From: an uncultured Muribaculaceae bacterium
GTDB taxonomy: Bacteria > Bacillota_I > Bacilli_A > RF39 > UBA660
Assembly (NCBI GenBank): GCA_964513345.1
Contig: CAZELY010000003.1
Span: 9,371-73,370 of the forward strand
Reading direction: 5' to 3'
DNA: 64,000 nucleotides
This document shows positions 415 through 63,262 of the stretch, one piece after another (within the stretch, counting starts at the first letter, position 1; the number at the start of each line of letters is the position of its first letter). Made by a program: the position numbers and the translations under genes. The notes below the pieces were generated by a model. It made no database searches, had not been told where the DNA came from, and worked only from the letters and a program-made list of their open reading frames with translations.

Positions 415-699
415 ATGAAAAAGAACGGATTTACACTAATAGAACTACTAGGTATTTTAGTATTACTTGGAATAATTATTTTAGTAGCTGTTCCCGCTAT
501 TATTAAATCAAACTCTACCGCTAAAACTAATGAAGGTAAAGAATTTGATCAAATAGCTAAAAATGCCTGTGAGGCATATGAAGCAGTATATGGTAAGGAT
601 GCAGCTAAAGATAAGACACTAGAAGAACTTAAAAATGCAGGTTACATACAAAAAGATTTGACTAAACCAAATGGAGCAACGTGGACTAAATGTTCTTAA
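415..699 (+). CDS. Prepilin-type N-terminal cleavage/methylation domain protein (small pseudopilin/ComGC-like)
   Basis: The N-terminus MKKNG|FTLIELLGILVLLGIII is a class III signal (G-1, F+1, E+5 plus a hydrophobic helix). It has a LKNAGYI motif and two Cys. It ends 24 nt before pgk with no terminator in between. Confidence 0.8.
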   Translation: MKKNGFTLIELLGILVLLGIIILVAVPAIIKSNSTAKTNEGKEFDQIAKNACEAYEAVYGKDAAKDKTLEELKNAGYIQKDLTKPNGATWTKCS

Positions 700-3290: not shown

Positions 3291-4058
3291 ATGGAAACAA
3301 TAAATGTATTAATGATTGATGATAATGTAAACTTAATAGACATGGTTAAAGAATATTTTAAGGAAAAGAAAGGTGTTAATGTTATAAAAGAAGCCTACGA
3401 TGGAATTCAAGGACTAGAAATAATTAAAGAAAACTTAGATGAAATTGACTTAATTATTTTAGATTTGATTATGCCAAAAAAAGATGGAATTTATGTTTTA
3501 AAAGAGATGAAAAAGTTAGGAATTGATAAAAAAGTAATTGTCGCAACTAGTTATAATGCTGCCGAAGTGATTAGAGAAGTTTCAGAATATGGAGTTAATT
3601 ATTATATTTTAAAACCATTTGATTTAGAAGACTTAGAAAAAAGAATTCACGAAATAACCAACAAAAAAAATGAAAATAAAAATATTGATTTTTACAATAG
3701 TAATATTCAAGTGTCAATTACTAAAATGCTGCATGAGCTAGGTATTCCATCACATATTAAAGGGTACCAATATATTAGAGAAGCCGTCAACATTATTTTT
3801 AAAAATCCCGAAGTTATTGGCGGCATTACTAAAGAATTATACCCTGAACTAGCTACTAAATTTTCGACAACTGTATCTCGAGTTGAAAGAGCTATTAGGC
3901 ATGCCATTGAAGTTAGTTGGAATCGAGGTAATTTAGATTTTATGGAGGAATTATTTGGATATAGTGTTGATATTGATAAAGCTAAGCCAACAAATTCAGA
4001 GTTTATTGTCACTATTGCCGATAAACTAAGATTAGATTACCATAAAGTTGGCAATTAG
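3291..4058 (+). CDS. spo0A: Sporulation master response regulator Spo0A
   Basis: Receiver domain (DD at 10-11, D in [11 protein letters not shown]) plus the Spo0A-specific C-terminal domain ([23 protein letters not shown] ... [19 protein letters not shown]). Confidence 0.9.
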
Positions 4059-4113: not shown

Positions 4114-4470
4114 ATGAAGAAAAATGGTTTTACATTAATTGAACTAGTAGGCGCAGTCGTTATTATAGCTATATTGGCATTAATCGCGTTTCCAGCCTTA
4201 GTTAGTATGTTAAATAAAGGTCAAGCTAAAATAGATAAATCAGTTAAGGAATTTGTTATGGCGGCTGTAGCGGAGTATGTTAATGATAATATTGATAGTT
4301 TAGGTACAAAACGTAGAATTGATGTAACTGCAGATTTAATAGAAAATGGGTATATTTCAACATCGTTTGCCGATAAGTACTGCGAAATCAAAAATGATTA
4401 TGTCATAATAGATTTGGGAACATCTTTAAAACAAAAATATCAGGAAGTCATGCCAGACGATAATTGTTAA
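4114..4470 (+). CDS. Prepilin-type N-terminal domain protein (pseudopilin-like)
   Basis: MKKNG|FTLIELVGAVVIIAILALIAFPAL, an LIENGYIS motif and a C-terminal Cys pair. It has its own -10 (TATAAT) and its own terminator (AAAACTATTT/AAATAGTTTTT). Confidence 0.8.
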   Translation: MKKNGFTLIELVGAVVIIAILALIAFPALVSMLNKGQAKIDKSVKEFVMAAVAEYVNDNIDSLGTKRRIDVTADLIENGYISTSFADKYCEIKNDYVIIDLGTSLKQKYQEVMPDDNC

Positions 4471-4547: not shown

Positions 4548-5024
4548 ATGAAAAATGTTCATTTTTTTGACAAAATTAAGGATGATAAATCATATAAATT
4601 AGCATTATCGACAGCCGTTCTAATAGCGGCTTTATTTCCAGTAAATGCCTATGCTTCTGAAGAACTTAGTGTAGAATATAAATATAATGGCACGCTAATT
4701 GATATGATTAATCCTACTAATTGGGATTATAATTATAACACAGCGATCATTAAAACAGCCAATACAAATATAACTATAAATAGTGAAGAGTTGGAAGCTT
4801 TAGTGGATACTGATGATGATACACTAACTATTAGTGACGGTGGAAGTACAATTACTTATAATAAGAGCGATTTAAAAAAGGAAATGATCAGTGCTAAAGA
4901 AAGTTATAATCCGAATGGCGAAAAAGTAAAAAAAATCATTTTAAATGGTGGTGTAACAATTACTTTTTTAGGAGCAACAGGATTATGTATTTACAATGAA
5001 ATGAAGGAAAGAAAAAGACGTTAG
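4548..5024 (+). CDS. Secreted protein with a C-terminal TM segment and basic tail (function unknown)
   Basis: Sec-type signal (..FPVNAYA|SEE) and a C-terminal NGGVTITFLGATGLCIY-NEMKERKRR. No LPXTG motif. Confidence 0.5.
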   Translation: MKNVHFFDKIKDDKSYKLALSTAVLIAALFPVNAYASEELSVEYKYNGTLIDMINPTNWDYNYNTAIIKTANTNITINSEELEALVDTDDDTLTISDGGSTITYNKSDLKKEMISAKESYNPNGEKVKKIILNGGVTITFLGATGLCIYNEMKERKRR

Positions 5025-10606: not shown

Positions 10607-11656
10607 ATGAATAAAACAAAACAAAAAAATATATTTATCATTAGCTTACTAGCTATAGTACTAATAATGGCCGTAGGCTATGCAGCTTTCGCAACAAATC
10701 TAACGGTAAATGGGACAGCAAGTATTTCATCAAATTGGTGTATAGGGTTTGATAGTACTAAAACTACAGATTATGTAGCAAGTAAAACTCATTCTACTGG
10801 AGACACACCAACAGGAAGTATTTCATTTAGTGGAAATGCATGTCAGACTAACTATAAAACAAATGCATCTTTAGTAGCTAATTTTAAACAACCAGGAGAT
10901 AAAATAGAATATACCCTAACAATAGCAAATAAAGGAAGTTTAGCAGCAGCAATAGAAAGTATCTTAGTAGATAATAATAACGTAACATCTAATCAAACAA
11001 TAACAAAAGGAAATGTAAAATATACAATAGAGATGCCATTAGATACATCATTAGCAGAAAATGAAACCACAACCATGCAAATAACAGCGGAGTTTCAAAA
11101 TGATACAAATATAAGCACCTCTAGTACAAGTACAGAAACCATAAGTGTTCAAATTAATGCCACCCAAGATGATGGTAGTGGAGGCTTCACTCCAACCCCA
11201 GCAGCGCAAACAGTATACGCAATCAATACAAGTAGTATATATAAAAACACATCAACGCTACAAGATATAGGAACAACGTATAATAGTTGTTCCGCAACAG
11301 GGAAGAATACATGTATAAGATATACTATAGAAAATGATATCGTAACAGGAGCAGAAGCTTGCTTTGTAAAAGGCGGAACTGAGTATTGCCTAAAAGGCTG
11401 GGTAGATGAGTGCTTGTATGATGGTAACGATTGTACATTTACAGGAACACAAACAGTATATAATGCCAATAAAACAACATTACAAACAGCCTTTACAGAA
11501 ACAAATGCCTGTTCTGATATTGGCTATGATTTCGGCTGCGATGCTTCCGGTTTCGATGCCAGCGCCAATAATGAGGGCGGCGTCTATGCGTACGATGGCG
11601 GCTGGAGCTGCTATGTCTATTCAGATGGCAATGCCGACTGCAGCGACAGCAGTTAG
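10607..11656 (+). CDS. Secreted protein: TasA/SipW-type leader, TasA(camelysin)-like N-domain, six-Cys C-terminal module
   Basis: The leader ..IMAVGYA|AFATNLTVNGTAS parallels TasA ..GGTWA|AFNDIKS..ASGTLDL. NFKQPGDKIEYTLTIANKGSLAAAI parallels TasA NLKPGDKLTKDFQFENNGSLAIKEV. The C-terminal Cys-rich module is shared with 52331-52933 and 61948-62928. Confidence 0.65.
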   Translation: MNKTKQKNIFIISLLAIVLIMAVGYAAFATNLTVNGTASISSNWCIGFDSTKTTDYVASKTHSTGDTPTGSISFSGNACQTNYKTNASLVANFKQPGDKIEYTLTIANKGSLAAAIESILVDNNNVTSNQTITKGNVKYTIEMPLDTSLAENETTTMQITAEFQNDTNISTSSTSTETISVQINATQDDGSGGFTPTPAAQTVYAINTSSIYKNTSTLQDIGTTYNSCSATGKNTCIRYTIENDIVTGAEACFVKGGTEYCLKGWVDECLYDGNDCTFTGTQTVYNANKTTLQTAFTETNACSDIGYDFGCDASGFDASANNEGGVYAYDGGWSCYVYSDGNADCSDSS

Positions 11657-34231: not shown

Positions 34232-34260
34232 TTGACATTTTTCATAATTTGTGCTAAAAT
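34232..34260 (+). promoter_or_regulatory. Strong sigma-A-type promoter driving the large noncoding region
   Basis: TTGACA (34232-34237), a 17-nt spacer, then TGc-TAAAAT (extended -10, 34252-34260). Confidence 0.65.
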
Positions 34261-34265
34261 TTTAA

Positions 34266-34735
34266 GTGTTGTGGTGCATTATTCTAGTTACATAACGCTA
34301 AAGGAAGGTAGGCCTAAAAATCTACCGGTTGCTGTAACGACACTTTATATATTTGCTTTTTCTGCCCAAGTTAGGGTGAATATATAATTTAAAGATCTAG
34401 GAACTCTATAATGGCATATAGTAGCTACTCCTGGATTTGCGTCATTATCAATCAAATCGGCAGGTCGTGAGTGGTATTGTGGGATAAACTTTTAACGATT
34501 AATACCCTGATCAGGTTTTAAATCTTTTGAAAACAATACTGCAAAAGCGGATAAGCTTAGCTCATTATGTATTAGGGAAAACCTCTAGAGTGTATATATT
34601 ATAAGTCTTGTAGTGCGGACCGAATGGCAATCGAGTCATTAATTCGGCGACGATTAATTGCTTTCTTTAAATAGAAATAGCCGGTGGGTAACCTAAGGTA
34701 GAAAGTAGAGAAATTCAACTCGACCACAGCCGTAA
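34266..34735 (+). ncRNA. Large structured noncoding RNA candidate (possibly OLE-class); not RNase P or tmRNA by motif
   Basis: No ORF in 567 nt of intergenic DNA, which is visibly more G+C-rich than the flanks. A long-range closing helix pairs GTTGTGGT (34268-34275) with ACCACAGC (34723-34730). There are many local hairpins: GGTAG/CTACC 34307-34326, GATTTG/CAAATC plus CCTG/CAGG 34430-34464, GGTATT/AATACC 34473-34506, and CCGAAT/ATTCGG 34620-34647. No terminator precedes the downstream four-TM gene. Confidence 0.6.
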
Positions 34736-34777
34736 AATTAATTTATAATATACCATAATGTTTTTTAAGGTGATCAA

Positions 34778-35290
34778 ATGAAAAGAGATAATTGGATTTT
34801 AATTATATTTATATTAACGTTCATATTGTCTTTTTTATTTAGTTCTATTTCTAATTTAATTTCCAATTTTAATATAGTTGCGATGATAATAATATTACTT
34901 GCTACTATATGCTTTGGTGTTGTTTTCGATATGATTGGTGTTGCCGTATTAAGTGCTAATGAAGCCACTTTTCATGCTAAAGCAGCTAACAAAATATATG
35001 GATCTAAAAAGAGTATAGAACTAATTAAAAATGCCAATAGAACTAGTAGTATTTGTAATGACGTTGTCGGTGATATTTGTGGAATTATTTCTGGTGCTCT
35101 AGCAGCTGGATTAATTATCATGCTGTGGGATACGCCAATTTTTGCTGCCATAATTACAGCTATTGTTTCGAGCCTTACGGTTGGCTTTAAAGCCATCGGT
35201 AAAAAAATGGCCATTAAACATGCTGACAATATTGTGGAAAAAGTTGGCATTATTATTAGTAGAATAGAATTTAAAAGAAAAGAAAAATAG
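34778..35290 (+). CDS. Small four-TM membrane protein with basic loops (OapA-like position)
   Basis: 170 aa with four hydrophobic helices, acidic motifs in the helices (FDMIGVA, NDVVGDICG), and Lys/Arg-rich loop and tail. Lies directly downstream of the structured RNA. Confidence 0.6.
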   Translation: MKRDNWILIIFILTFILSFLFSSISNLISNFNIVAMIIILLATICFGVVFDMIGVAVLSANEATFHAKAANKIYGSKKSIELIKNANRTSSICNDVVGDICGIISGALAAGLIIMLWDTPIFAAIITAIVSSLTVGFKAIGKKMAIKHADNIVEKVGIIISRIEFKRKEK

Positions 35291-37279: not shown

Positions 37280-38395
37280 ATGAGAGGATTAAGAAGACAT
37301 AGAAATAGAAAACAAGTAAAAATAGTACTTTGTATGGCCATATGTTTATTAACTATCATGACAGTTGGCTATGCTGCTTTTAGTACTAATATTGGATTAA
37401 ACGCTAAGGGGAATTTGATAGAGTGCTATCAAAACAGAAAATGGGATTTTGATCATAAAAAAGAAGCTCAAGAAATTACCATTTCTTGCCCGGGAGTTTA
37501 TCTGTTTGAGCTGTGGGGCGCAGGAAACAATTATTCTGGCGGTGGTTATACTTCTGGTAAAATAAGCTTGCAAAGAAATGACAAATTTTATCTATATGTT
37601 GGTGAACAAGGCCATGATAATAACAGTGATACAATTGGGGGATGGAATGGTGGTGGCAACACCATTGCGACAACACAGGGTAAATCTGGAATGACTGGTA
37701 GTGGTTCAACTGATGTAAGGACAGTATCAGGTGACTGGGATAATTTTAATTCTTTAAAGTCAAGAATTATGGTTGCTGGAGGCGCTGGAGGAGTAGGAGG
37801 CGCAAACCAAGGTGCCAATGGTGGCGGCTTGGTTGGTTATGATGGATCCTCTACTAATACAGATTATTTAATTTATTTAGGTAAAGGTGGTACCCAAACA
37901 GCCGGAGGCGCTGCACCTACCAAATATGATGCTGCTCAATCTAATGGCACACCTGGTTTGTTTGGTAAAGGTGGCACCGGTGGCGCAAGTCGCGATGATA
38001 CTTCGACCGGTGGTGGCGGAGCTGGTGGTGGCGGCTACTTTGGTGGTTCAGGAGCCAGTGGACTTTCCAATGGCACGTTTGCTGCTGGTGGTGGATCATC
38101 ATTTATATCAGGGCATGTTGGTTGTATAGCTATTGATCAAAATTCTACTGAAAGTAATATTCAGCAAAGAAAAGGAACAAATAATGCAACTTGTGTAGAT
38201 AATTCCACTGATGTATTATGTTCACGTCATTATTCAAATTATATATTTACCGAAACTGAGATAATTGATGGTAAAGGTTATGGATGGACAAACAATATTG
38301 GAAGTTATGAAGGTCAACCACAACCAGATAGTACTATTGCTGCTGGACATATTGGTAATGGCCACGCTAGAATAACATTGATCTCACTTAATTAA
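37280..38395 (+). CDS. Secreted glycine-rich-domain protein with a TasA/SipW-type leader
   Basis: Leader ..TIMTVGYA|AFSTNIGLNAKGN. The body reads CPGVYLFELWGAG..GGGYTSG..LYVGEQG..GGWNGGG..GSGSTDVR..IMVAGGAGGVGG..GGGGAGGGGYFGGSGA..GGGSSFI, which resembles the bacterial 'glycine rich protein' family related to the ALK/LTK glycine-rich domain. Confidence 0.6.
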   Translation: MRGLRRHRNRKQVKIVLCMAICLLTIMTVGYAAFSTNIGLNAKGNLIECYQNRKWDFDHKKEAQEITISCPGVYLFELWGAGNNYSGGGYTSGKISLQRNDKFYLYVGEQGHDNNSDTIGGWNGGGNTIATTQGKSGMTGSGSTDVRTVSGDWDNFNSLKSRIMVAGGAGGVGGANQGANGGGLVGYDGSSTNTDYLIYLGKGGTQTAGGAAPTKYDAAQSNGTPGLFGKGGTGGASRDDTSTGGGGAGGGGYFGGSGASGLSNGTFAAGGGSSFISGHVGCIAIDQNSTESNIQQRKGTNNATCVDNSTDVLCSRHYSNYIFTETEIIDGKGYGWTNNIGSYEGQPQPDSTIAAGHIGNGHARITLISLN

Positions 38396-50601: not shown

Positions 50602-51198
50602 ATGAAAAAAACAGTGCCATTTAAAAAAGAAATTGTTTTTGATAATAATATTGATGAAATTAATAGTATTTCATTAGAATATGAAGTAAATGAAAAAAGT
50701 AATAATTTAATAAAGGGTAATTTTATAATTAATGGAGATTATCGTATGGCTAGTGGTAGTTCTAATCTCGATACATTTTCATATAATTTGCCATTTAGTA
50801 TCAATGTTGACAGCAAATACAATATCGATGAAGCGGAAATCGAAATTAGTGATTTTTATTATGAGGTTGTAAATAATAAAATATTATCGGTTAATATTGA
50901 ATTAGAAGTCGATAATATTTTAGAAAACGAGCAAAACATAAAACTAGAAGTAGATGAGCCAGTAAAAGAGGCTGAAGTAATTGAAACTCAGTCTACTGAA
51001 ACAATTAAATCACTATTCGATAATTTAGAAGATAATGAAACATATACAACGTATAAAGTTCATATCGTAACAGAAAATGATACCATAGAATCGATAATAG
51101 TAGATTATGAAATAACTAAAGAAAAATTAGAAAATTATAATAATTTAACTGATATTAAAATTGGCGATAAAATTATTATCCCAGCCAATGAAAATTAA
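50602..51198 (+). CDS. spoVID: SpoVID-like spore coat morphogenetic protein (N-terminal SpoVID-type region, acidic linker, C-terminal LysM)
   Basis: LysM at the C-terminus (YKVHIVTENDTIESIIVDYEITKEKLENYNNL..IGDKIIIP), a highly acidic middle, and a CotS/YsxE-like gene downstream as in B. subtilis spoVID-ysxE. Confidence 0.55.
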   Translation: MKKTVPFKKEIVFDNNIDEINSISLEYEVNEKSNNLIKGNFIINGDYRMASGSSNLDTFSYNLPFSINVDSKYNIDEAEIEISDFYYEVVNNKILSVNIELEVDNILENEQNIKLEVDEPVKEAEVIETQSTETIKSLFDNLEDNETYTTYKVHIVTENDTIESIIVDYEITKEKLENYNNLTDIKIGDKIIIPANEN

Positions 51199-52057
51199 TG
51201 AAGATTTAAAAAAGTATTCTTTGATACCAAAACGCTATACAAAAAAGAATAAGTCATTTATTATTGATACCAATAAAGGAAAATTTGTATATAAAAACTC
51301 TAAACCCAAAAAAGAAATTTTGGATTATTTAAAAACGAGAAATTTTGATTATATACCAAAATATATAACTAAATCATTTGACAATTATCAAATAACTGAA
51401 TATTTAGAAAATTACAATATTCCGAAAGAACAAAAAATATTAGATATGATTAATTTAGTTTCTCTTTTACATAGTAAAACCACCCATTATAAAGAAATTG
51501 ATATTAATGAATATGAAAAGATATATGAAGAAGTAATTAATAATATTGATTATTTAAGAGGTTATTATACTGATTTAATAACAATTATTGAAAGCAAAGT
51601 ATATCCGAGCCCAAGCGAATATTTACTTGAACGTAATATTAGTATTATTTTTGGTACTTTAAATAGTTTAAACGAGCGTCTTGAAAAATTTAATACTTTA
51701 ATTACAAATAAAAAAACTGATAGAAATGTTATTTTACACAATAATTTAAAATTGGATCATTTTATTAGAAATAATAAATCATATTTAATTAATTGGGATT
51801 ATGCAAAAATAGGAAATCCTATATTTGATATTTATAAACTATATAAAAACCATGTTAGTGATTTTGATTTTTTAGAATTATTAAAAGCATATGAAAAAAA
51901 TTATCCTTTAAAAGATGATGAAAAGGAACTTTTGTTTATTTTAATAAGTTTACCGGATAAAATAGAATTTAATGATAATGAATATGAGATGTGTAAAAAA
52001 ATAAGTAAATTTGTCGATGAATTATATAAAACAAATAATTTTACCAAAACAATTTAA
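51188..52057 (+). CDS. ysxE: CotS/YsxE-family spore coat protein (kinase-like fold)
   Basis: The LHNNLKLDHFI and NWDYAKIGNPIFDI patterns (aminoglycoside/choline-kinase-like), overlapping the spoVID-like stop. Confidence 0.55.
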   Translation: MKINEDLKKYSLIPKRYTKKNKSFIIDTNKGKFVYKNSKPKKEILDYLKTRNFDYIPKYITKSFDNYQITEYLENYNIPKEQKILDMINLVSLLHSKTTHYKEIDINEYEKIYEEVINNIDYLRGYYTDLITIIESKVYPSPSEYLLERNISIIFGTLNSLNERLEKFNTLITNKKTDRNVILHNNLKLDHFIRNNKSYLINWDYAKIGNPIFDIYKLYKNHVSDFDFLELLKAYEKNYPLKDDEKELLFILISLPDKIEFNDNEYEMCKKISKFVDELYKTNNFTKTI

Positions 52058-52330: not shown

Positions 52331-52933
52331 ATGAATCAAAAAGGATTTATTGCTTCATCACTTTTATATGGTATGCTGGCGCTTTTCTTAACATTAATGA
52401 TAAGTACCTTATTTATTTTTGGTAATAATAAATTAAGTATGGATAGATTAAAAGAAAAAGCTTTGAATGATTTAGGAACACCAGTAGAAATTATTAGTAT
52501 TCGCCAAGTTTATGCATATCATTTGGATCAGAAGACTATCGGTACAAGTACAATTACAGATGGTGTTGAGGATTATACAGCTTTAAGTTCATATCAAAAT
52601 GGTAAAAAATGGTTTTTAAAATATGAAATTAATTCAAGTAATGTAATTCAAAAAGCATGGGCCTGCATGAAATATGATTTTATAACAGAACCTGTATGTA
52701 TTCAAGGTGGCGGAAGCGAATTTTATAGTCCTAACAGAGAATTATTACAAGGATTAACGGATCTTTTTACGTCAAATGGTGGTTCATGCGTTCCAGCATC
52801 AAATCGAATTGATTGTTCTGCCGGCGAGTTGGAAATTACTAATATGAATACAAATAATTATTTGACTTGGAATGATTCTTTAATGGAGTATTGTGAAATA
52901 AATGGGAATAAGGCTTATTGTGGTCAAGAATAA
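52331..52933 (+). CDS. Pilin-like protein with a degenerate class III leader and the six-Cys C-terminal module
   Basis: MNQKG|FIASSLLYGMLALFLTLMISTLFIF has G-F but no Glu at +5. The C-terminal part (ACMKYDFITEPVCIQGGG..C-x8-C-x25-C-x8-C) is shared with 10607-11656 and 61948-62928. Confidence 0.6.
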   Translation: MNQKGFIASSLLYGMLALFLTLMISTLFIFGNNKLSMDRLKEKALNDLGTPVEIISIRQVYAYHLDQKTIGTSTITDGVEDYTALSSYQNGKKWFLKYEINSSNVIQKAWACMKYDFITEPVCIQGGGSEFYSPNRELLQGLTDLFTSNGGSCVPASNRIDCSAGELEITNMNTNNYLTWNDSLMEYCEINGNKAYCGQE

Positions 52934-52975
52934 TAGATTATTGACAAAACAAACATAAAAGATTATAATTTATAG

Positions 52976-53190
52976 AAAACGAAGAACAAGAGGAGTAGAG
53001 TATATATTTTTTAAAGAGAGTTAGTGGTTGGTGAAAACTAATAAAAATAATATTTGAAGGTAGCTTGGGAGTTGATGCACGAATAGTTAATGTACTCCGC
53101 TAAAACGGCGTTATTGTTTTAAGGTAATTAATAATTACAAATTAAGGTGGTACCACGTGCAAAACGTCCTTATACAGGGGCGTTTTTTTA
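52976..53190 (+). promoter_or_regulatory. T-box leader (Val, specifier GUA)
   Basis: Promoter TTGACA-17 nt-TATAAT (52941-52969). AGAGAG and GGTTGGTGAAAAC, specifier region GAAGGUAG at 53056-53063, the T-box AAGGTGGTACCACG, and the terminator AACGTCC..GGGGCGTTTTTTT. Confidence 0.85.
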
Positions 53191-53207
53191 TTGGAAAGGA
53201 TGATAAC

Positions 53208-55730
53208 ATGTTAGATAAGAAATACAATCATTTAAAAGTTGAAGAAGGAAAGTATGAAAAATGGAAGGAAAAAGGTTATTTTGCTAGCGGAGACACTTCA
53301 TTAAAGCCATATTCCATTGTAATACCCCCTCCAAATGTAACAGGGAAATTACATTTAGGTCATGCATGGGATACAACACTTCAAGACATTTTAATTAGAT
53401 TTAAAAGAATGCAAGGGTATGATGCATTATGGCTTCCTGGCATGGATCATGCGGGTATTGCCACACAGGCTAAAGTTGATGCCAGACTTCGTGAAAATGG
53501 TATTAATCCTCGTGAGATGAGTAGAGAAGAATGGCTTAAAGCCGCTTGGGCTTGGAAAGAAGAGTATGCTGCTAACATCCATGATCAATGGGCAAAATTA
53601 GGGCTTTCATTAGATTATTCTAAGGAAAGATTTACTTTAGATGAAGGCTTATCTGAGGCTGTTCGTCACGTTTTTGTTACTTTATATGAAAAAGGTTTAA
53701 TTTATCAAGGTGAAAGAATAATAAACTGGGATCCCGTTCAAATGACAGCTTTGTCTAATGAAGAAGTTGTTTATAAAGAAGAACCTGGTAAATTTTACCA
53801 TATTAAATATTTTATTGAAGGAACTGATGAATATTTAGATGTTGCAACAACTAGACCAGAAACTCTATTCGGCGATACTGCTGTAGCGGTTAATTCTAAA
53901 GACAAAAGATATAAAAAATATATTGGTAAGAATGCCATTTTACCAGTTTTAAATAAACCAATTCCAATTATTGCTGATGAGCATGCTGATATGGAAAAGG
54001 GAACTGGTGTTGTTAAGATTACCCCTGCTCATGATCCAAATGACTTTGAAGTTGGAGAAAGACATAATTTAGAAAAAATTGTTATCATGAATAAAGATGC
54101 TACTATGAATGAAATATGTGGTAAATATGCAGACATGGATAGATATGAATGTCGCAAGGAACTTTTAAAAGATTTAGAAAAAGACGGATTATTAATCGGT
54201 ATGGAAGATATTGTCCACTCAGTTGGTCACTCCGAAAGAAGTGGGACGGCAGTAGAACCATATCTTTCAAAACAATGGTTTGTTAAAATGCGTCCATTGG
54301 CTGATAACGTTTTGAAAAATCAAAAAGATAAAGATAAGAAAGTAAATTTTGTACCATCAAGATATGAAAAAACTATGAACCACTGGATGGAAATTACTTA
54401 TGATTGGTGTATTTCTAGACAATTGTGGTGGGGTCATAGAATACCAGCTTGGTATAAAGGCGATGAAGTATATGTTGGTATGGAAGCACCAACTGAAGAA
54501 GGTTGGGTACAAGATGAAGACGTATTAGACACTTGGTTTTCATCAGCTTTATGGCCATTTAGTACGATGGGCTGGCCAAAGAAAACAGAAATGATGGAAA
54601 GATATTATCCTAATAATGTTTTAGTAACAGGATTTGATATTATTTTCTTTTGGGTTAGTAGAATGGTATTCCAGGGATTAGAATTTACGGGGGAAAGACC
54701 ATTTAAAGATTGTCTTATCCATGGACTTATTCGTTCAAAAGATGGAAGGAAAATGAGTAAAAGCTTAGGCAATGGTGTTGATCCAATTGACATGATAGAA
54801 GAATATGGTGCCGATGCTTTAAGGTTTTATCTATCTACTTCAGCAGCAGCCGGAACTGATTTAAAATTTGATGAAGATAAAGTTAAATCAACTTGGAATT
54901 TTATTAACAAATTATGGAATGCTTCAAGATATGTTTTAATGAATACCGAAGAATATAATGAGACTTTAGATGATTTAACACTGGCGGACAAATGGATTTT
55001 AACTAAGTTAAATAAAACAATTAAACAAGTTACTAAAAATATGGAAAAATATGAATTTAATTTAGTTGGTTCTACCTTACATTCATTTATTTGGGATGAT
55101 TTCTGTGATTGGTATATTGAACTTTCTAAAATAAATATGAATGATACAACTAAAACTGTTTTAGTTAAAGTATTAAAAGATATTTTAAAGATGTTACATC
55201 CATTTATGCCATTTGTAACTGAAGAAATTTACACTAAAATTTCTGCCGAAGCAACAATTATGAAGTCTAAATATCCAGAATATGATAAAAAATGTGTTTT
55301 TGAAGAAGCAAATGACATGGATAACATTATTGAACTAATCACTAAAGTTCGTAAATTAAAACTAGAAAATAATATTAAGGAACTCTATTTGAAATATGAT
55401 AGTGACATTTTAAACAAAAACAAAGATATTATAGATAAATTATTAAAAGTAAAATACATTGATAACTATGCTAATTTGGATAGCTTTGAAATTAACTTTA
55501 ATGGTGAAAGTATATATTTATATTATGATGGGTCTGCCAATAAAGAAGCTGAAATTGATGGCTTACAAAAAGAAAAAGAAAGATTAGAAGCCTCAATTAT
55601 TAGGAGAGAAAAACTTCTTTCTAATGAAAACTATGTCAACAAAGCTCCTAAAAATATAGTAGATACTGAAAAAGCTAATTTAGAAAAAGAAAAACAAGAA
55701 TTAGAAATTATAATTAATAAATTAAAGTAA
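53208..55730 (+). CDS. valS: Valine-tRNA ligase
   Basis: The start at MLDKKYN follows the T-box terminator. [13 protein letters not shown] (HIGH), KMSKSLGN, and a C-terminal coiled coil. Confidence 0.95.
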
Positions 55731-55823: not shown

Positions 55824-56270
55824 ATGAATAAGAAAGGTTTTACTTTAGTTGAGTTATTAGCCGTTATCGTTATTTTAGCTATCATTGCATTAATTACCGC
55901 ACCAGCAATATTGAATGTCATTAATGATGCTCGTCAAAAAGGAGCAGAAGATAAAGCTTGGGGTACAATTGATGCCGTTAGACTTGCTTATACTCAAGAA
56001 CAAGGGTTTGGCACATCAACACTTACAAGAAATGATGGATCTACTAGTGGGGATGAAAAATATATTGTAACATTTGGAACAACTACGGGGAATGCACATG
56101 AAGTTGTTGGATCTCGTTCAATCACTGTAAGTGGTGAAAAACCAGTATCTGGTAAAGTAATAATAAATTTAACTTCTGGTCAAATTTCTTGTGAAAACTT
56201 AGAATTTACTGCCAATGGTAAATTTAAATGTTCTTCATCAGGTAACACAATGACTTGTACTGCACAATAA
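55824..56270 (+). CDS. Prepilin-type N-terminal domain protein (type IV pilin/pseudopilin-like)
   Basis: MNKKG|FTLVELLAVIVILAIIALITAPAIL, three C-terminal Cys, AGGAGG RBS and its own terminator (AAGCACTTT/AAAGTGCTT). Confidence 0.85.
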   Translation: MNKKGFTLVELLAVIVILAIIALITAPAILNVINDARQKGAEDKAWGTIDAVRLAYTQEQGFGTSTLTRNDGSTSGDEKYIVTFGTTTGNAHEVVGSRSITVSGEKPVSGKVIINLTSGQISCENLEFTANGKFKCSSSGNTMTCTAQ

Positions 56271-56353
56271 TAATTAAGCACTTTAAAAAGTGCTTTTTTC
56301 TTGCTTATTTTTTTATATCATGATAAAATAAATGAAGATAGAGGTATAAAAAG

Positions 56354-56773
56354 ATGCAAGAAAAGGGTATTGAATTTATGGTAATCGTAATATTATTAAT
56401 GGTTGTTGGCATTTTGCTTTTTCCAATATGCAAAAAAATGGTATATAACGCACAAGATTCTTCAGCTTCTACTAGTGTCTATAATATGATCGATTCAGTT
56501 AAAAATTTATATTTAGTAGAAAATCAGCAATTGGATAATAAAGTCTATCTACCATTTGCGGTTGAATATAATGAAGAAAGTTATAAAACATATTGTAATG
56601 GTAATGAGGTAGATCTTCCAACTAAGTTGAAATTAGAAGGTAACAAACCAACTTCTGGAACAATTGTATGGCGTAAGGACAATAGTATTGTAGTTAATGA
56701 TTTAGTATATAATAATCATACGTGTAATAAACTTCCTGAAGGTGACGTAGAATGTGTCAGAAACTCTAAATAG
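56354..56773 (+). CDS. Pilin-like paralog with an eroded cleavage motif
   Basis: MQEKG|IEFMVIVILLMVVGILL looks like KG-FTL-IE with the FTL missing. It shares a G-x-KP-x-SG-x-(V/I) motif with the upstream pilin (SGEKPVSGKVI versus EGNKPTSGTIV). Confidence 0.55.
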   Translation: MQEKGIEFMVIVILLMVVGILLFPICKKMVYNAQDSSASTSVYNMIDSVKNLYLVENQQLDNKVYLPFAVEYNEESYKTYCNGNEVDLPTKLKLEGNKPTSGTIVWRKDNSIVVNDLVYNNHTCNKLPEGDVECVRNSK

Positions 56774-56819: not shown

Positions 56820-58619
56820 ATGAATCAAAACAACATTCGCAATTTTTCTATCATTGCCCATATTGATCATGGTAAAAGTACGATTGCCGATAGGATATTA
56901 GAATTAACTGGGGCAATAACTGATCGTGAAAAACAAGATCAATTACTTGACAGTATGGATATTGAAAGAGAAAGAGGCATTACAATAAAATTAAATGCGG
57001 TTCAATTAAATTATCATTATAAAAATGAAGATTATATTTTACATCTGATCGATACTCCGGGTCATGTGGATTTTTCCTATGAAGTATCGCGCAGTTTAGC
57101 AGCTTGTGAAGGTGCTGTTTTAGTCGTTGATGCTGCTCAAGGAATAGAAGCTCAAACACTTGCTAATATTTATTTAGCTTTAGATAATAATTTAGAAATA
57201 ATTCCTGTTATTAACAAAATTGATTTACCAAATGCTGATGTTCCAAAAGTTAAAAAGGAACTTATGGATACTTTTGGTTTCAAGGAAGAAGAAATTATTT
57301 TAACTAGTGCGAAAACTGGTGAAGGAATTAAAGAATTAGTGGACGCCATTGTTGAAAGGATTCCTGCTCCAGAAGGAAATATTAATGGTAAGTTACAGGC
57401 ATTAGTTTTTGATAGCTATTTTGATTCATATAAAGGTGTGATTGCTTTAGTTAGAATTGTTAATGGTAAAGTAAGCACAAAAGATAAGATAAAAATGATG
57501 GCAACTTCAGCTGTGCATGATGTCGTGGAACTTGGTGTCCATAATCCAAAAGAAGTAGTTAAAGATGAACTAGTTACTGGCGAAGTTGGGTATATATGCG
57601 GCAGTATAAAAAGTATTAGTGATGTTAAAGTAGGAGATACTATTACTTTAGCCAATGATCCTGCTTCAAAAACACTACCGGGTTATAAACCAATGAAACC
57701 TATGGTTTTTTGTGGATTGTACCCAATTGAATCAAATAAATACCCAATGTTAAGAGAAGCTTTAGAAAAATTAAAATTAAATGATGCAGCCCTAGAGTTT
57801 GAACCAGAAACATCTAAAGCCTTAGGGTTTGGTTTTAGATGTGGTTTTTTAGGCTTATTACACATGGAAATAACTACTGAAAGAATTAAAAGAGAATTTA
57901 ATATTGACATTATTGCGACAGCGCCATCAGTAATTTATAAAATAACGAAAACTGATAATGAAACTATTTATATTGATTCTCCAGCTAAAATGCCGGAAAA
58001 ACAAAAAATTAGAATAATTGAAGAACCATATATTAAAACCGATATTTTAGTACCAAGTGATTATATTGGCCCAGTAATGGAACTATGTCAAAACAAAAGA
58101 GGTAATTACATAAGTATGGATTATTTAAATCAAACAAGAGTAAATATTCATTATGAAATACCACTTTCAGAAATAGTCTATGACTTTTTTGACAAATTAA
58201 AAGGAAGCACTAAAGGTTATGCTTCATTCGATTATGATTTAATCGGTTATAAAGAAAGCAATTTAGTAAAAATGGATATTTTATTAAACGGATCAATTGT
58301 TGATGCCCTAAGTTTAATTGTCCATAAAGATTTTGCTTATAAAAGGGGAAGAAATATTGTCGAAGCTTTAAGAAAGCAAATTCCAAGACAAATGTTTGAA
58401 GTGCCTATTCAAGCTGTAATTGGTACTAAAGCTATCGCCCGAGCAGATATTAAAGCCATGCGCAAAAATGTTTTAGCTAAATGTTATGGTGGCGATGTTT
58501 CAAGAAAACGAAAACTATTAGAAAAACAAAAAGAAGGTAAAAAGAAAATGAAAATGGTAGGTAATGTCGAAGTGCCGCAAGAGGCCTTCTTAGCTGTTTT
58601 AAGTATGGATGAAGAATAA
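56820..58619 (+). CDS. lepA: Elongation factor 4 (LepA)
   Basis: [23 protein letters not shown], and the LepA C-terminal domain. Confidence 0.95.
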
Positions 58620-61205: not shown

Positions 61206-61879
61206 GGGGTAAATTAATAGTAATCGAAGGAACTGATTGTTCTGGTAAAGAAACACAAACAAATTTATTGATTGAAAAATTAAGAGACAAAGACATTAAA
61301 GTTGATAATTTTAGCTTTCCAAATTATAATTCACCAACAGGCAAAATAGTGGGTGGGCCTTATTTAGGGAAAGACTATATATCAGATACTTATTTTGAAG
61401 AAGGACCAACACAAGTTGACCCTAAAGTAGCATCTTTATATTATGCAGCGGATAGAAAATATAATATTAGTAAAATTATTTTCCTTTTAGAAAATGGCTA
61501 CAATGTTATATTAGATCGATATATATATTCAAACATGGCTCATCAAGGTGGCAAAATATTTGATGATAAAGAGCGAAATAGCATATATAATTGGCTAGAA
61601 AAATTAGAATTTGATCTATTGGAATTACCAAAACCTGATATCGCCATTTTTCTTCATATGCCAACTAATTATTCACAAGTTTTAAAAGCCGAAAGAAATG
61701 AAAAACCAGATGGACATGAACAAGATATTAATCATTTAAAACACGCCGAAAAAGCTTATGTTGAACTAGCTAAAAGATATAAAATGCATACTATCGAATG
61801 TGTTAAAAATGATATTATTAGAAATATTGATGATATAAGTGATGAAGTATATGATTATGTTATGGATAAATTAAAGTAG
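61202..61879 (+). CDS. tmk: Thymidylate kinase family protein
   Basis: IVIEGTDCSGKETQ P-loop and DRYIYSNMAHQG (DRY motif). Overlaps the folA stop. Confidence 0.7.
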   Translation: MRGKLIVIEGTDCSGKETQTNLLIEKLRDKDIKVDNFSFPNYNSPTGKIVGGPYLGKDYISDTYFEEGPTQVDPKVASLYYAADRKYNISKIIFLLENGYNVILDRYIYSNMAHQGGKIFDDKERNSIYNWLEKLEFDLLELPKPDIAIFLHMPTNYSQVLKAERNEKPDGHEQDINHLKHAEKAYVELAKRYKMHTIECVKNDIIRNIDDISDEVYDYVMDKLK

Positions 61880-61898
61880 GTGTCAACCTACTTTTTTT
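61874..61898 (+). terminator. Terminator after tmk
   Basis: AAGTAGGT-gtca-ACCTACTT followed by T7. Confidence 0.8.
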
Positions 61899-61947: not shown

Positions 61948-62928
61948 ATGAGTAAAAAAGGGTTTACGTTAATCGAATTACTTGTTGTAATTGTTATACT
62001 TGCAATTATTGCTTTAGTAGCTGTCCCGGTGATAATTGGTGTCATTAATAGTTCCAAAGAAAAAGCATATCAGGAACAGGAAAGAGCTATTGTCACAGCA
62101 GCTAGAAATTATATTGCTAAAAATTCAAAAGAAATGCCAACAATGAAAGGTGCAAGTAAATGTATACCGGTTGAAACTTTAAAAAACGCTGGATTATTAA
62201 AAGATCAGACAATTCAAAATCCAGTTGGAGTTAATTATAAAGATTACACCGAAAAAGATGACAATTTTAACGGCGGTGTTTTAGTTGAAAATAATAACAA
62301 CAATTATACATATAATTATGTTGATGACTGCTCAACTATAACATTTACTGGAACGATATATAGAAATAATCAAGTTGGAGCAGGCATTGGAAGTTCGATA
62401 ATACCAGTAAGTGGGACTAAGTACGTTATAACTAACGGCGAGTATGTTGCCCCAGTTGGCCCATATAATAGTCAAAATGAATGCCAAACGGCATTAACAG
62501 AACATGGGGCCCCCGAAGAATTTTATTGTGAAAAACAAACTGGAACATTTGGGGGAATCGGTGAATACACAAAAGATGCTTCAGGTTTGAATAAAAAACA
62601 TTATTTAAAACACGAAGTAGTAGACAATATAATAACTGCATCATATGCATGTTTTGTAACGGACAAAGAATATTGTATGCAAGGGGGAAATGCATCTTAT
62701 TATGCTGCCAACCAAGCAATATTACAAAGCCAAGATGCGTGGTTTAATAACAGCGATGGTTACTGCTATATTGAATCTGAATTTTCAGGTTGTTACAGTT
62801 ATAATAAATATAATATTGGTGCAAATTCATATGGTGAGGTTTATACTAGATCATCTGACATTCTTGGATGTATAGTGGAGAAAGATGGCTTTTCCCACTG
62901 TAATAAAAGAGAAGAATCGGCTATGTAG
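61948..62928 (+). CDS. Type IV pilin-like protein carrying the six-Cys C-terminal module
   Basis: MSKKG|FTLIELLVVIVILAIIALVAVPVI, a pilin-type Cys pair (KC..DC) and a LKNAGLL motif. These are followed by an extra roughly 190-aa region ending in ACFVTDKEYCMQGGN..C-x8-C-x25-C-x9-C. Confidence 0.8.
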   Translation: MSKKGFTLIELLVVIVILAIIALVAVPVIIGVINSSKEKAYQEQERAIVTAARNYIAKNSKEMPTMKGASKCIPVETLKNAGLLKDQTIQNPVGVNYKDYTEKDDNFNGGVLVENNNNNYTYNYVDDCSTITFTGTIYRNNQVGAGIGSSIIPVSGTKYVITNGEYVAPVGPYNSQNECQTALTEHGAPEEFYCEKQTGTFGGIGEYTKDASGLNKKHYLKHEVVDNIITASYACFVTDKEYCMQGGNASYYAANQAILQSQDAWFNNSDGYCYIESEFSGCYSYNKYNIGANSYGEVYTRSSDILGCIVEKDGFSHCNKREESAM

Positions 62929-62992
62929 TATCATAGCTACATATGAGTAATTATTTTATAGCATTCGAGTTTTCTGGATAAATAAAAAAACA

Positions 62993-63262
62993 CTACTTTG
63001 TAGTGCTTTTTTTATTTTCAATTTTTTCTTCAATAAAGCTTCCTATATATGATCCAATTAATGAACCAAGCGCATAAAAGAAAATTTTAATGGGATCATT
63101 TTTAATATTCATAATGACATTACCAGTTACAATAATCCAAATCAAGGCCACAAAAAACTGTAAAATAGCGCCTAATATTTTTTTGCCATTGGCAATAACA
63201 ATAATCCTAAGTGTTTTCAAAGCTTCCTCAATAATCATAAAAATAAAGATAAATATATACAT
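62993..63262 (-). CDS. Small membrane protein (DUF5698-like)
   Basis: 89 aa with the LRIIVIANGKK..GAILQFFVALIWI pattern, as in the N-terminal module of DUF2179/YitT-type proteins. Confidence 0.45.
   Translation of the reverse strand: MYIFIFIFMIIEEALKTLRIIVIANGKKILGAILQFFVALIWIIVTGNVIMNIKNDPIKIFFYALGSLIGSYIGSFIEEKIENKKSTTK

Follow-up and report, generated by a model that had tools for sequence, protein, structure and literature searches.

A 64,000-nt stretch of DNA from an uncultured RF39 bacterium (the window; C3:9371-73370 of the source genome, G000) carries two adjacent genes, D (55824-56270) and E (56354-56773), that form a fixed two-gene module ahead of lepA, usually behind valS, throughout a genus of uncultured Bacilli with genomes of about 1 Mb. 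D encodes an ordinary type IV pilin with a class III signal peptide. E encodes a pilin-like protein that is not a canonical prepilin; it is an ancient paralogue of D rather than a recent tandem copy, and it appears to have kept the pilin fold and retains the long hydrophobic alpha-1 helix and a C-terminal Cys pair. Overall, we think it likely that D is an ordinary pilin with E as its ancient, uncleavable sister, that the pair is a fixed module, and that the core pilins of this genome were inherited in place and the accessory ones inserted.

The source assembly comprises 886 kb in 31 contigs, with 30% GC, and is 84% complete. Sequences for the alignments of D and E orthologues were taken from eleven other species of the same genus. 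Positions were compared in targeted regions of G002, G005, G007, and G011 and of outgroups, and genome-wide against the complete congeneric genome G009 (576 reciprocal best hits; median amino-acid identity, 64.6%); G and L numbers denote related genomes and loci. An order-wide sample covered 61 genomes from 48 genera.

The order D-E-lepA, mostly with valS in front, recurs in 15 of 16 related loci, and the pair is therefore old and syntenic. Within the genus, valS-D-E-lepA was seen at 10 of 11 loci, with identities of about 70% for ValS, about 80% for LepA, 45 to 51% for D, and 31 to 38% for E. The copy number of D varies; two species (G014:C42 1191-2626, L002; G078:C16, L122) have D, a second D, and E. 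Further loci show D-D'-E-lepA (G078), valS-D-E-lepA (L115), and spoVID-ysxE-D-E-lepA (L120). The gene between E and lepA is adhesin-like in L117 (1353-2846; 497 amino acids [aa], with an AgI/II C2 domain) and reverse-transcriptase/maturase-like in L114 (4895-5740), where valS also stands in front. No D/E-type pair was found behind valS in outgroups G019, G021, G024, and G025; a 115-aa gene at that position in G024 was considered as a possible E-like gene and rejected (hhalign probability, 0.4%). A sequence-only reading of the window had proposed instead that individual subunit genes had been inserted, repeatedly and recently, beside strongly expressed housekeeping genes where conserved gene order is broken, with D and E arising by tandem duplication and "FTL" then being lost from E. 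As far as the D/E pair is concerned, recent insertion is already refuted by this synteny. The gene order in Bacillus subtilis would be valS-folC-comC; if so, the position behind valS may be an inherited site for pilus genes.

The assignment of D as a canonical prepilin is secure. It scores above the cut-offs of both Pfam N_methyl (PF07963, 32.6 bits) and TIGR02532 (32.7 bits). Its cleavage motif, MNKKG/FTLVE (slash, cleavage site), has the short basic leader, Gly at -1, and hydrophobic residue at +1 of a class III signal peptide, and E10 and P27 of the precursor are Glu5 and Pro22 of the mature protein, so that the Glu, the stretch of about 20 hydrophobic residues, and the helix-breaking Pro of type IV pilins are all present. 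In the AlphaFold2 model (predicted local distance difference test score [pLDDT], 85), a helix at residues 8 to 62 is followed by a five-strand sheet. The best PDB match by sequence for the D-family profile is the Streptococcus sanguinis major pilin PilE1 (8pfb; E=5e-9, residues 7-100). The initial 60 or so residues are near-invariant among 13 D orthologues, and D has the highest codon adaptation among the pilins of G000 (88th percentile), a weak signal. Judged from the near-invariant alpha-1, the likeness to PilE1, and codon adaptation, D would be the best candidate for the main subunit.

E begins 83 nt downstream of D. That the two are paralogues is well supported: the D and E families align by hhalign with a probability of 99.7% (E=7.9e-26, 134 columns), indicating full-length homology, in a register in which Glu7 of E falls opposite Glu5 of mature D, and Pro24 opposite Pro22, with an identical 17-residue spacing. 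The AlphaFold2 model of E (pLDDT, 87) has a helix at residues 3 to 58 and then strands; in the models of both proteins, which were built on alignments and are confident, an N-terminal helix of about 55 residues precedes four to seven strands. The sequence identity between D and E is just 21%. E had zero matches to Pfam or NCBIfam families, including N_methyl and TIGR02532, and lacks the leader of a canonical prepilin. The G/FTLxE box is absent from all 11 E orthologues of the genus, and the KG/IEF appearance of E in the window is therefore a coincidence of one species. Thus, E is not a copy of D from which "FTL" has been deleted; no orthologue has the canonical motif. Among these orthologues, E7, P24, C124, and C134 are invariant, within 12 to 13 invariant columns in all.

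The E family extends beyond these orthologues. In a profile search of 1.84 billion representative proteins, 18 matches were found at E<=1e-30; about the best 36 matches are all non-canonical, and canonical D-like pilins start at E=1.1e-19. Across 45 E-type representatives, the Glu (40/45), the Pro (41/45), and the Cys pair (43/45) are largely retained. The residue at the canonical -1 position is unconserved (G, N, K, S, D, E, M, T, and others), being Gly in 9 of the 45, and Lys or Arg is found at +2 in 35. The implied leader is 1 to 12 residues long, with 2 in window E and in many relatives. Counted per genome at E<=1e-18 in the order-wide sample, E-type genes are restricted to this genus; a profile search of genome contigs with the E alignment returned a single locus, in an "uncultured Bacilli bacterium" metagenome-assembled genome from rabbit. 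Loss of the cleavage box is thus ancestral to the E family, and the gene has been kept by selection.

E could instead be what is left of a duplicated pilin gene that has lost its function and is decaying; the cleavage box is lost, no database model matches, and one species (G016) lacks the gene. We consider this extremely unlikely. The open reading frame is intact in every other species, the invariant columns include the Cys pair, and at least 45 representative clusters all share the same non-canonical N-terminus. The ratio of nonsynonymous to synonymous substitution rates (dN/dS), computed among four related species, is 0.13 to 0.21 for E and 0.19 to 0.28 for D, and both genes are under purifying selection.

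G000 has one dispersed, minimal type IV filament machine. The peptidase, the assembly ATPase, and the platform protein are all present; PilB has two minor pilins adjoining it (C1, about 24.5 to 27.3 kb), and PilC and PilD lie together behind dnaG-sigA. ComEC is present as well, and a separate Tad-type gene set lies on C1. PilM was not found in G000, where FtsA alone matches, and none of the three T2SSE-family matches in the genome is a retraction ATPase (PilT). Seventeen canonical prepilins were counted in the 886 kb, 16 as N_methyl matches above cut-off and one a KGF/LLVE pilin beside PilB (C1:26161). Prepilins were found in 60 of the 61 genomes of the order (median 8, range 0 to 35, per 0.7 to 1.6 Mb), and matches to the N-terminus of D number 10 to 23 in species of this genus and 0 to 3 in most other Bacilli families sampled. 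The idea that pilins replace sortase-anchored proteins was not supported, given three sortase genes in G000.

These components raise the possibility that D, E, and the small pilins belong to a Com-type pseudopilus for DNA uptake and not to a pilus for adhesion or motility. As in the Com pilus of Bacillus and Streptococcus, an ATPase, a platform, and a peptidase (compare ComGA, ComGB, and ComC) are accompanied by ComEC, no PilMNO or PilT was found, and it is the ComGC model that gives the small pilins 415-699 and 4114-4470 their best scores. However, no pilin reaches any Com equivalog cut-off; for ComGC (NF040999, 75 bits), the scores are 46.3 for 415-699, 32.3 for 4114-4470, and 28.0 for D. 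At 507 and 510 aa, the ATPase and the platform have the sizes of PilB and PilC, the prepilins here number 17 rather than 5, the nearest solved relative of D is a type IV pilus major pilin (that of S. sanguinis), and many of the pilins carry large heads (326 to 1199 aa), typical of adhesive modular pilins. We hold a Com-type role as a tentative possibility. Roles in DNA uptake and in adhesion or motility are compatible.

On the current view, type IV filaments contain solely subunits cut by a prepilin peptidase. We imagine that PilD would cleave and methylate D, and that PilB and PilC would then polymerize it as the main subunit. The Glu5-less protein 52331-52933 may cap the tip, with the remaining pilins as minor or cargo-bearing subunits. 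Since E has no PilD site, it is most likely membrane anchored; not being cut, it would remain in the membrane, where it could dock via its Glu5 equivalent under the last D subunit and offer no free mature N-terminus to the next. Going by these sequence features, E may be a subunit that terminates or anchors the filament, or else a partner of D within the membrane, a possibility that we advance with reserve. One can further envision E-type proteins as a dedicated class of uncleavable pilins behind the main pilin, in which Glu5 docking and an unprocessed N-terminus with Lys or Arg at +2 stop elongation and anchor the filament; in this general form, we regard the idea as unlikely. If true, E-type proteins would be a built-in terminator or anchor subunit of a monoderm type IV filament.

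Alternatively, E might be incorporated into the filament as a normal minor pilin that bypasses canonical processing, either because its natural N-terminus already lies near the mature position or because PilD or another protease cuts at a residue other than Gly. The implied two-residue leader, the Gly at -1 in some representatives, and the retention of the Glu5 and Pro22 equivalents and of the alpha-1 hydrophobic pattern, as in assembling pilins, are all consistent with this. However, Gly at -1 is required by PilD-type peptidases, and the -1 residue of the E family is unconserved; Lys or Arg prevails at +2, where assembling pilins carry Thr or Ser; and the length of the leader varies. On balance, such a role for E seems to us somewhat unlikely.

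Several observations weigh against our interpretation of D as the main subunit and E as its uncleavable sister. G016 (L007, G016:C16) has D and no E, and E is dispensable in that species. Those E-type proteins with Gly five residues before the Glu (e.g., MGNSG/KTIWE) may, in some cases, still be cleaved. When the D and E models were compared to the PDB with Foldseek, nothing significant was returned, the best pilin being Clostridioides difficile PilW (E of about 0.5); because of this, the fold assignment rests on profile homology and secondary structure. The support from codon adaptation for D as the major pilin is weak, with a reference-set mean of 0.68 and a genome median of 0.66. Finally, the absence of PilT and PilMNO is provisional in an assembly that is 84% complete.

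The pair is part of a larger set. Eight genes of the window had been described as encoding fibre subunits. Four are Pfam-positive prepilins (D, 415-699, 4114-4470, and 61948-62928); of the others, 52331-52933 lacks Glu5, E lacks Gly at -1, and the two genes with SipW-type leaders, 10607-11656 and 37280-38395, have no match to a fibre model. In fibre-type genes, the window exceeds the density of the genome about 3.7-fold (8 observed against 2.17 expected; Poisson, 0.0018, calculated post hoc). The identities previously given for the neighbouring genes were confirmed with Pfam (PGK, Spo0A, Obg, RuvX, a CotS/YsxE-like kinase, Tmk, HrcA, ValS, and LepA). It also holds true that the pilin genes lie dispersed, singly or two together, between housekeeping genes, an arrangement that differs from a pil operon and from comG, which forms one operon. 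Coordinates are collected in Table 1.

Table 1. Features of the window and related features elsewhere in G000 (slash, cleavage site)
Feature	Position	Strand	Description	Match or remark
Small prepilin	415..699	+	94 aa, 24 nt upstream of pgk	N_methyl 24.5 bits, above cut-off
Small prepilin	4114..4470	+	118 aa, behind spo0A	N_methyl 31.1 bits, above cut-off
SipW-type-leader protein	10607..11656	+	...AVGYA/AFATN, between obg and clpC, species-specific	No family match
Glycine-rich-domain protein	37280..38395	+	...TVGYA/AFSTN, between vanY-like gene and ruvX, species-specific	PF12810 (ALK/LTK-type), 1.7e-38
Glu5-less pilin-like protein	52331..52933	+	MNQKG/FIASSLLYG..., Cys-rich C-terminal module	Candidate tip subunit
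T-box leader of valS	52973..53174	+	Between 52331-52933 and valS	Rfam RF00230, 122.7 bits (gathering score 93)
valS	53157..55730	+	Conserved neighbour upstream of D	tRNA-synt_1, Anticodon_1, Val_tRNA-synt_C
D	55824..56270	+	Type IV prepilin, 148 aa, leader MNKKG then FTLVELLAVIVILAIIALITAP...	Candidate major subunit
Terminator-like hairpin	56276..56295	+	Directly behind D	8-bp stem, then T-run
E	56354..56773	+	Pilin paralogue without prepilin-peptidase site, 139 aa, start MQEKGIEFMVIVILLMVVGILLFP...	
lepA	56820..58619	+	Conserved neighbour downstream of E	GTP_EFTU, LepA_C
Modular prepilin	61948..62928	+	326 aa, pilin module and Cys-rich head	N_methyl 33.2 bits, above cut-off
PilB	C1:24566-26089		Assembly ATPase	T2SSE, C1:24929-26065, 411 bits
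PilC and PilD	C1:95319-97621		Platform and peptidase (PilD at about 95.3-96.1 kb)	T2SSF, C1:96122-97102; Peptidase_A24, C1:95442-95768
Tad-type gene set	C1, ~117-121 kb			
SipW-type peptidases	C6:31185, C16:8711, C16:17108, C18:28, C18:7413, C1:144734		Six paralogues, none within the window	TIGR02228, above cut-off

As to whether these genes were inherited or inserted, the answer depends on the gene. The positions of 415-699, 4114-4470, 52331-52933, D, and E are kept across the genus. A pilin stands upstream of pgk in G002, G005, G007, G009, and G011 and is absent there from outgroups G019 and G024; the same five genomes have a pilin behind spo0A. Orthologues of 52331-52933, with a conserved KGF[IVT]xS.LLYG motif, are found behind ysxE in G002, G009, and G019 and upstream of valS in G007; G019, in which a gene of this kind is found behind ysxE, belongs to another family of the order. 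The remaining three genes are species-specific. The junctions that hold 61948-62928 and 37280-38395 are collinear and empty in G009, and 10607-11656 has no counterpart behind obg in G009, G002, and G011. The modular gene 61948-62928 is inserted between tmk and a DUF5698 gene and is missing from that junction in G009, G007, and G005; the closest relative of its pilin module is a paralogue that the same genome carries (the C20 tandem pilins, 53% identity), as would be expected of a gene that was duplicated and then inserted. The G009 junction that corresponds to 37280-38395 is 278 bp long and empty, and G011 likewise has nothing there. In summary, the small core pilins sit at inherited sites, and the large modular and SipW-leader genes come and go by insertion. 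Repeated insertion, as proposed in the sequence-only reading, is supported for three of the eight genes and not for the other five, which occupy the same positions in relatives.

The same division is seen across the genome. Of 30 fibre-like genes of G000, 11 have a positional counterpart in G009, and these are the small ones; the large C1, C10, and C16 arrays have none, and those of C1 and C10, giant arrays of pilins, were inserted into junctions that measure just 3 to 6 bp in G009. Both these arrays and the gap-pilin-pgk order of two relatives, which compared to the gap-pgk order of G024 looks like an old operon insertion, are in keeping with the proposal of repeated insertion at order breaks. 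Breakpoints also are mildly enriched at fibre-gene junctions (9/19, versus 133/523 at others; odds ratio, 2.6), a weak effect that is not significant (Fisher p=0.058); 142 of 542 junctions between consecutive orthologue anchors (26%) are breakpoints with respect to G009. Thus, the genes do not all lie at synteny breaks; in the window, the junctions of D/E, 4114-4470, 37280-38395, and 61948-62928 are collinear with G009, and those of 415-699, 10607-11656, and 52331-52933 have a breakpoint on one side. Given the synteny of D/E, their divergence, the absence of the canonical motif from every E orthologue, and the genus-wide positions of 415-699, 4114-4470, and 52331-52933, recent insertion together with tandem duplication is, as a general account, improbable. 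Fibre genes as recombination substrates behind the rearrangements were rejected, with nucleotide similarity of at most 77% over at most 126 nt and protein identity of 27 to 30% between Cys-rich modules.

Some arrangements around these genes are worth recording. The order gap-pilin-pgk, inside a glycolytic operon, is found in G007 (L026, G007:C16 1748-4480) and G011 (L030, G011:C4 7712-10309); in outgroup G024, gap and pgk are adjacent with a 10-bp gap, and in G000, gap no longer adjoins. Between the spo0A-linked pilin and dusB, the window has a gene (4548-5024), absent there in G007, whose 158-aa product combines a signal peptide with a membrane anchor at the C-terminus. ysxE adjoins obg in G002, G003, G009, G012, and G018; in the window, it is followed by 52331-52933 and valS, and obg is about 40 kb away.

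The protein encoded by 52331-52933 keeps Gly at -1 and Phe at +1, has Ser at +5, and has no match to a Pfam or NCBIfam model. Its C-terminal module resembles that of 61948-62928 (30% over 122 aa, E=1.5e-9). The subunit that caps a minor-pilin tip complex lacks Glu5 (GspK/PilK/PilX type; reviewed in PMC10191384), and, by analogy, we infer that 52331-52933 is a candidate tip subunit. Gly at -1 and Phe at +1 are kept, and Glu5 is absent, in both; unlike the GspK/PilK/PilX proteins, to which no sequence similarity was detected, 52331-52933 has a Cys-rich head in common with 61948-62928 and 10607-11656.

The two genes with SipW-type leaders share a ...VGYA/AF... leader, as seen by blastp. No match to TasA/camelysin (Peptidase_M73) or to the SipW-cognate signal (TIGR04088) was found for either at E<=1 in Pfam and NCBIfam. 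G000 encodes six SipW-type (archaeal/ER-type) signal peptidase I paralogues, and those at C6:31185, C16:8711, and C16:17108 adjoin genes with VGYAAF or IGFSAF leaders. A SipW-type export route for 10607-11656 and 37280-38395 is plausible, and the six peptidases with their [VI]G[YF][AS]AF-leader genes look like a second, expanded export route for surface proteins. A second glycine-rich-domain gene, C8:10880-12034, has a leader near-identical to that of 37280-38395 (MRGLRRHRNRKQ.K.VL....CLL.IMTVGYAAFSTNI); both junctions are empty in G009.

Each of the fibre genes had also been credited with its own promoter, and all but one with its own terminator. Promoter-like matches are not commoner than in shuffled sequence (77 versus 74.1; 76 versus 67.6), such scans being uninformative in DNA of 30% GC, and separate promoters are not borne out. 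Terminator-like sites in the D/E region outnumber those in shuffles (10 versus 3.5); the scan placed sites solely behind D (56276-56295), tmk (61873-61894), and 61948-62928 (62991-63005) and none behind 4114-4470, 10607-11656, 37280-38395, and 52331-52933, and separate terminators for each gene are not confirmed. A 12/12 promoter match lies at 52941-52969. The longest valS open reading frame, from GTG at 53157, overlaps the terminator of the T-box (53161-53186); translation of valS probably begins at the ATG near 53208, some 17 codons further on (MLDKKYNHL...).

The window has other features of interest. A full-length OLE RNA lies at 34255-34772 (+; Rfam RF01071, 229 bits, model 1-616), directly followed by a 170-aa membrane protein (34778-35290); its host here is a small-genome gut bacterium, not an extremophile. 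In this genome of about 1 Mb, Spo0A is intact (3291-4058; Spo0A_C, 1.6e-41), SpoVID-like and YsxE-like genes lie at 50602-52057, and the related contig L120 has a SASP gene; sporulation capacity may be retained.

Pilins account for an unusual proportion of the genes in these uncultured gut Bacilli of about 1 Mb, with a stable core at fixed sites and a fast-changing set with large heads between housekeeping genes. This richness bears on surface attachment or DNA uptake by reduced, probably host- or partner-dependent bacteria. In the literature searched, we found no description of pilin richness in this lineage (RF39 with type IV pili), nor of a conserved pilin family that lacks the cleavage box and is tied to a main pilin gene. 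A conserved, selected pilin paralogue that cannot be cut by the usual route, always encoded beside the likely main subunit, offers a lead on how filaments are started, stopped, or anchored in a stripped-down monoderm machine.

How does this system compare to others? The leader of TasA ends in ...GTWA/AF, which the ...VGYA/AF... leader of 10607-11656 and 37280-38395 resembles, in a genome with six SipW-type peptidases. These proteins differ from TasA and CalY, which make up biofilm fibres in Bacillus, in lacking the family and signal matches, and 37280-38395 has an ALK/LTK-type glycine-rich domain. A close parallel to the D/E pair is PilE1/PilE2 of S. sanguinis (8PFB; PMC10628169), where two paralogous pilins likewise belong to the type IV pilus of a monoderm. 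These two are cleaved, canonical pilins that share extensive sequence identity, and each is a major subunit (Anger et al. 2023, PMC10628169); the type IV pilus genes of S. sanguinis are clustered (PMC10191384). In contrast, the identity between D and E is 21%, the cleavage box is missing from E, and the genes of the machinery are dispersed. Dispersal of pil genes is usual for diderm type IVa pili (PMC10191384). Modular type IV pilins are also known in S. sanguinis (PilB and PilC; Raynaud et al. 2021, PMC8179133), and 61948-62928 and the 548- to 1199-aa prepilins on C1 and C10 are built in the same way, with a large C-terminal part grafted onto a pilin module; the heads differ, and here such genes are numerous, dispersed, and subject to turnover from one species to the next. 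The possible terminator or anchor function of the E-type proteins would be analogous to that of the basal pilin of sortase-assembled pili, here in a monoderm type IV filament for which no PilMNO or PilT was found and in which a membrane-resident sister of the main pilin might take that part.

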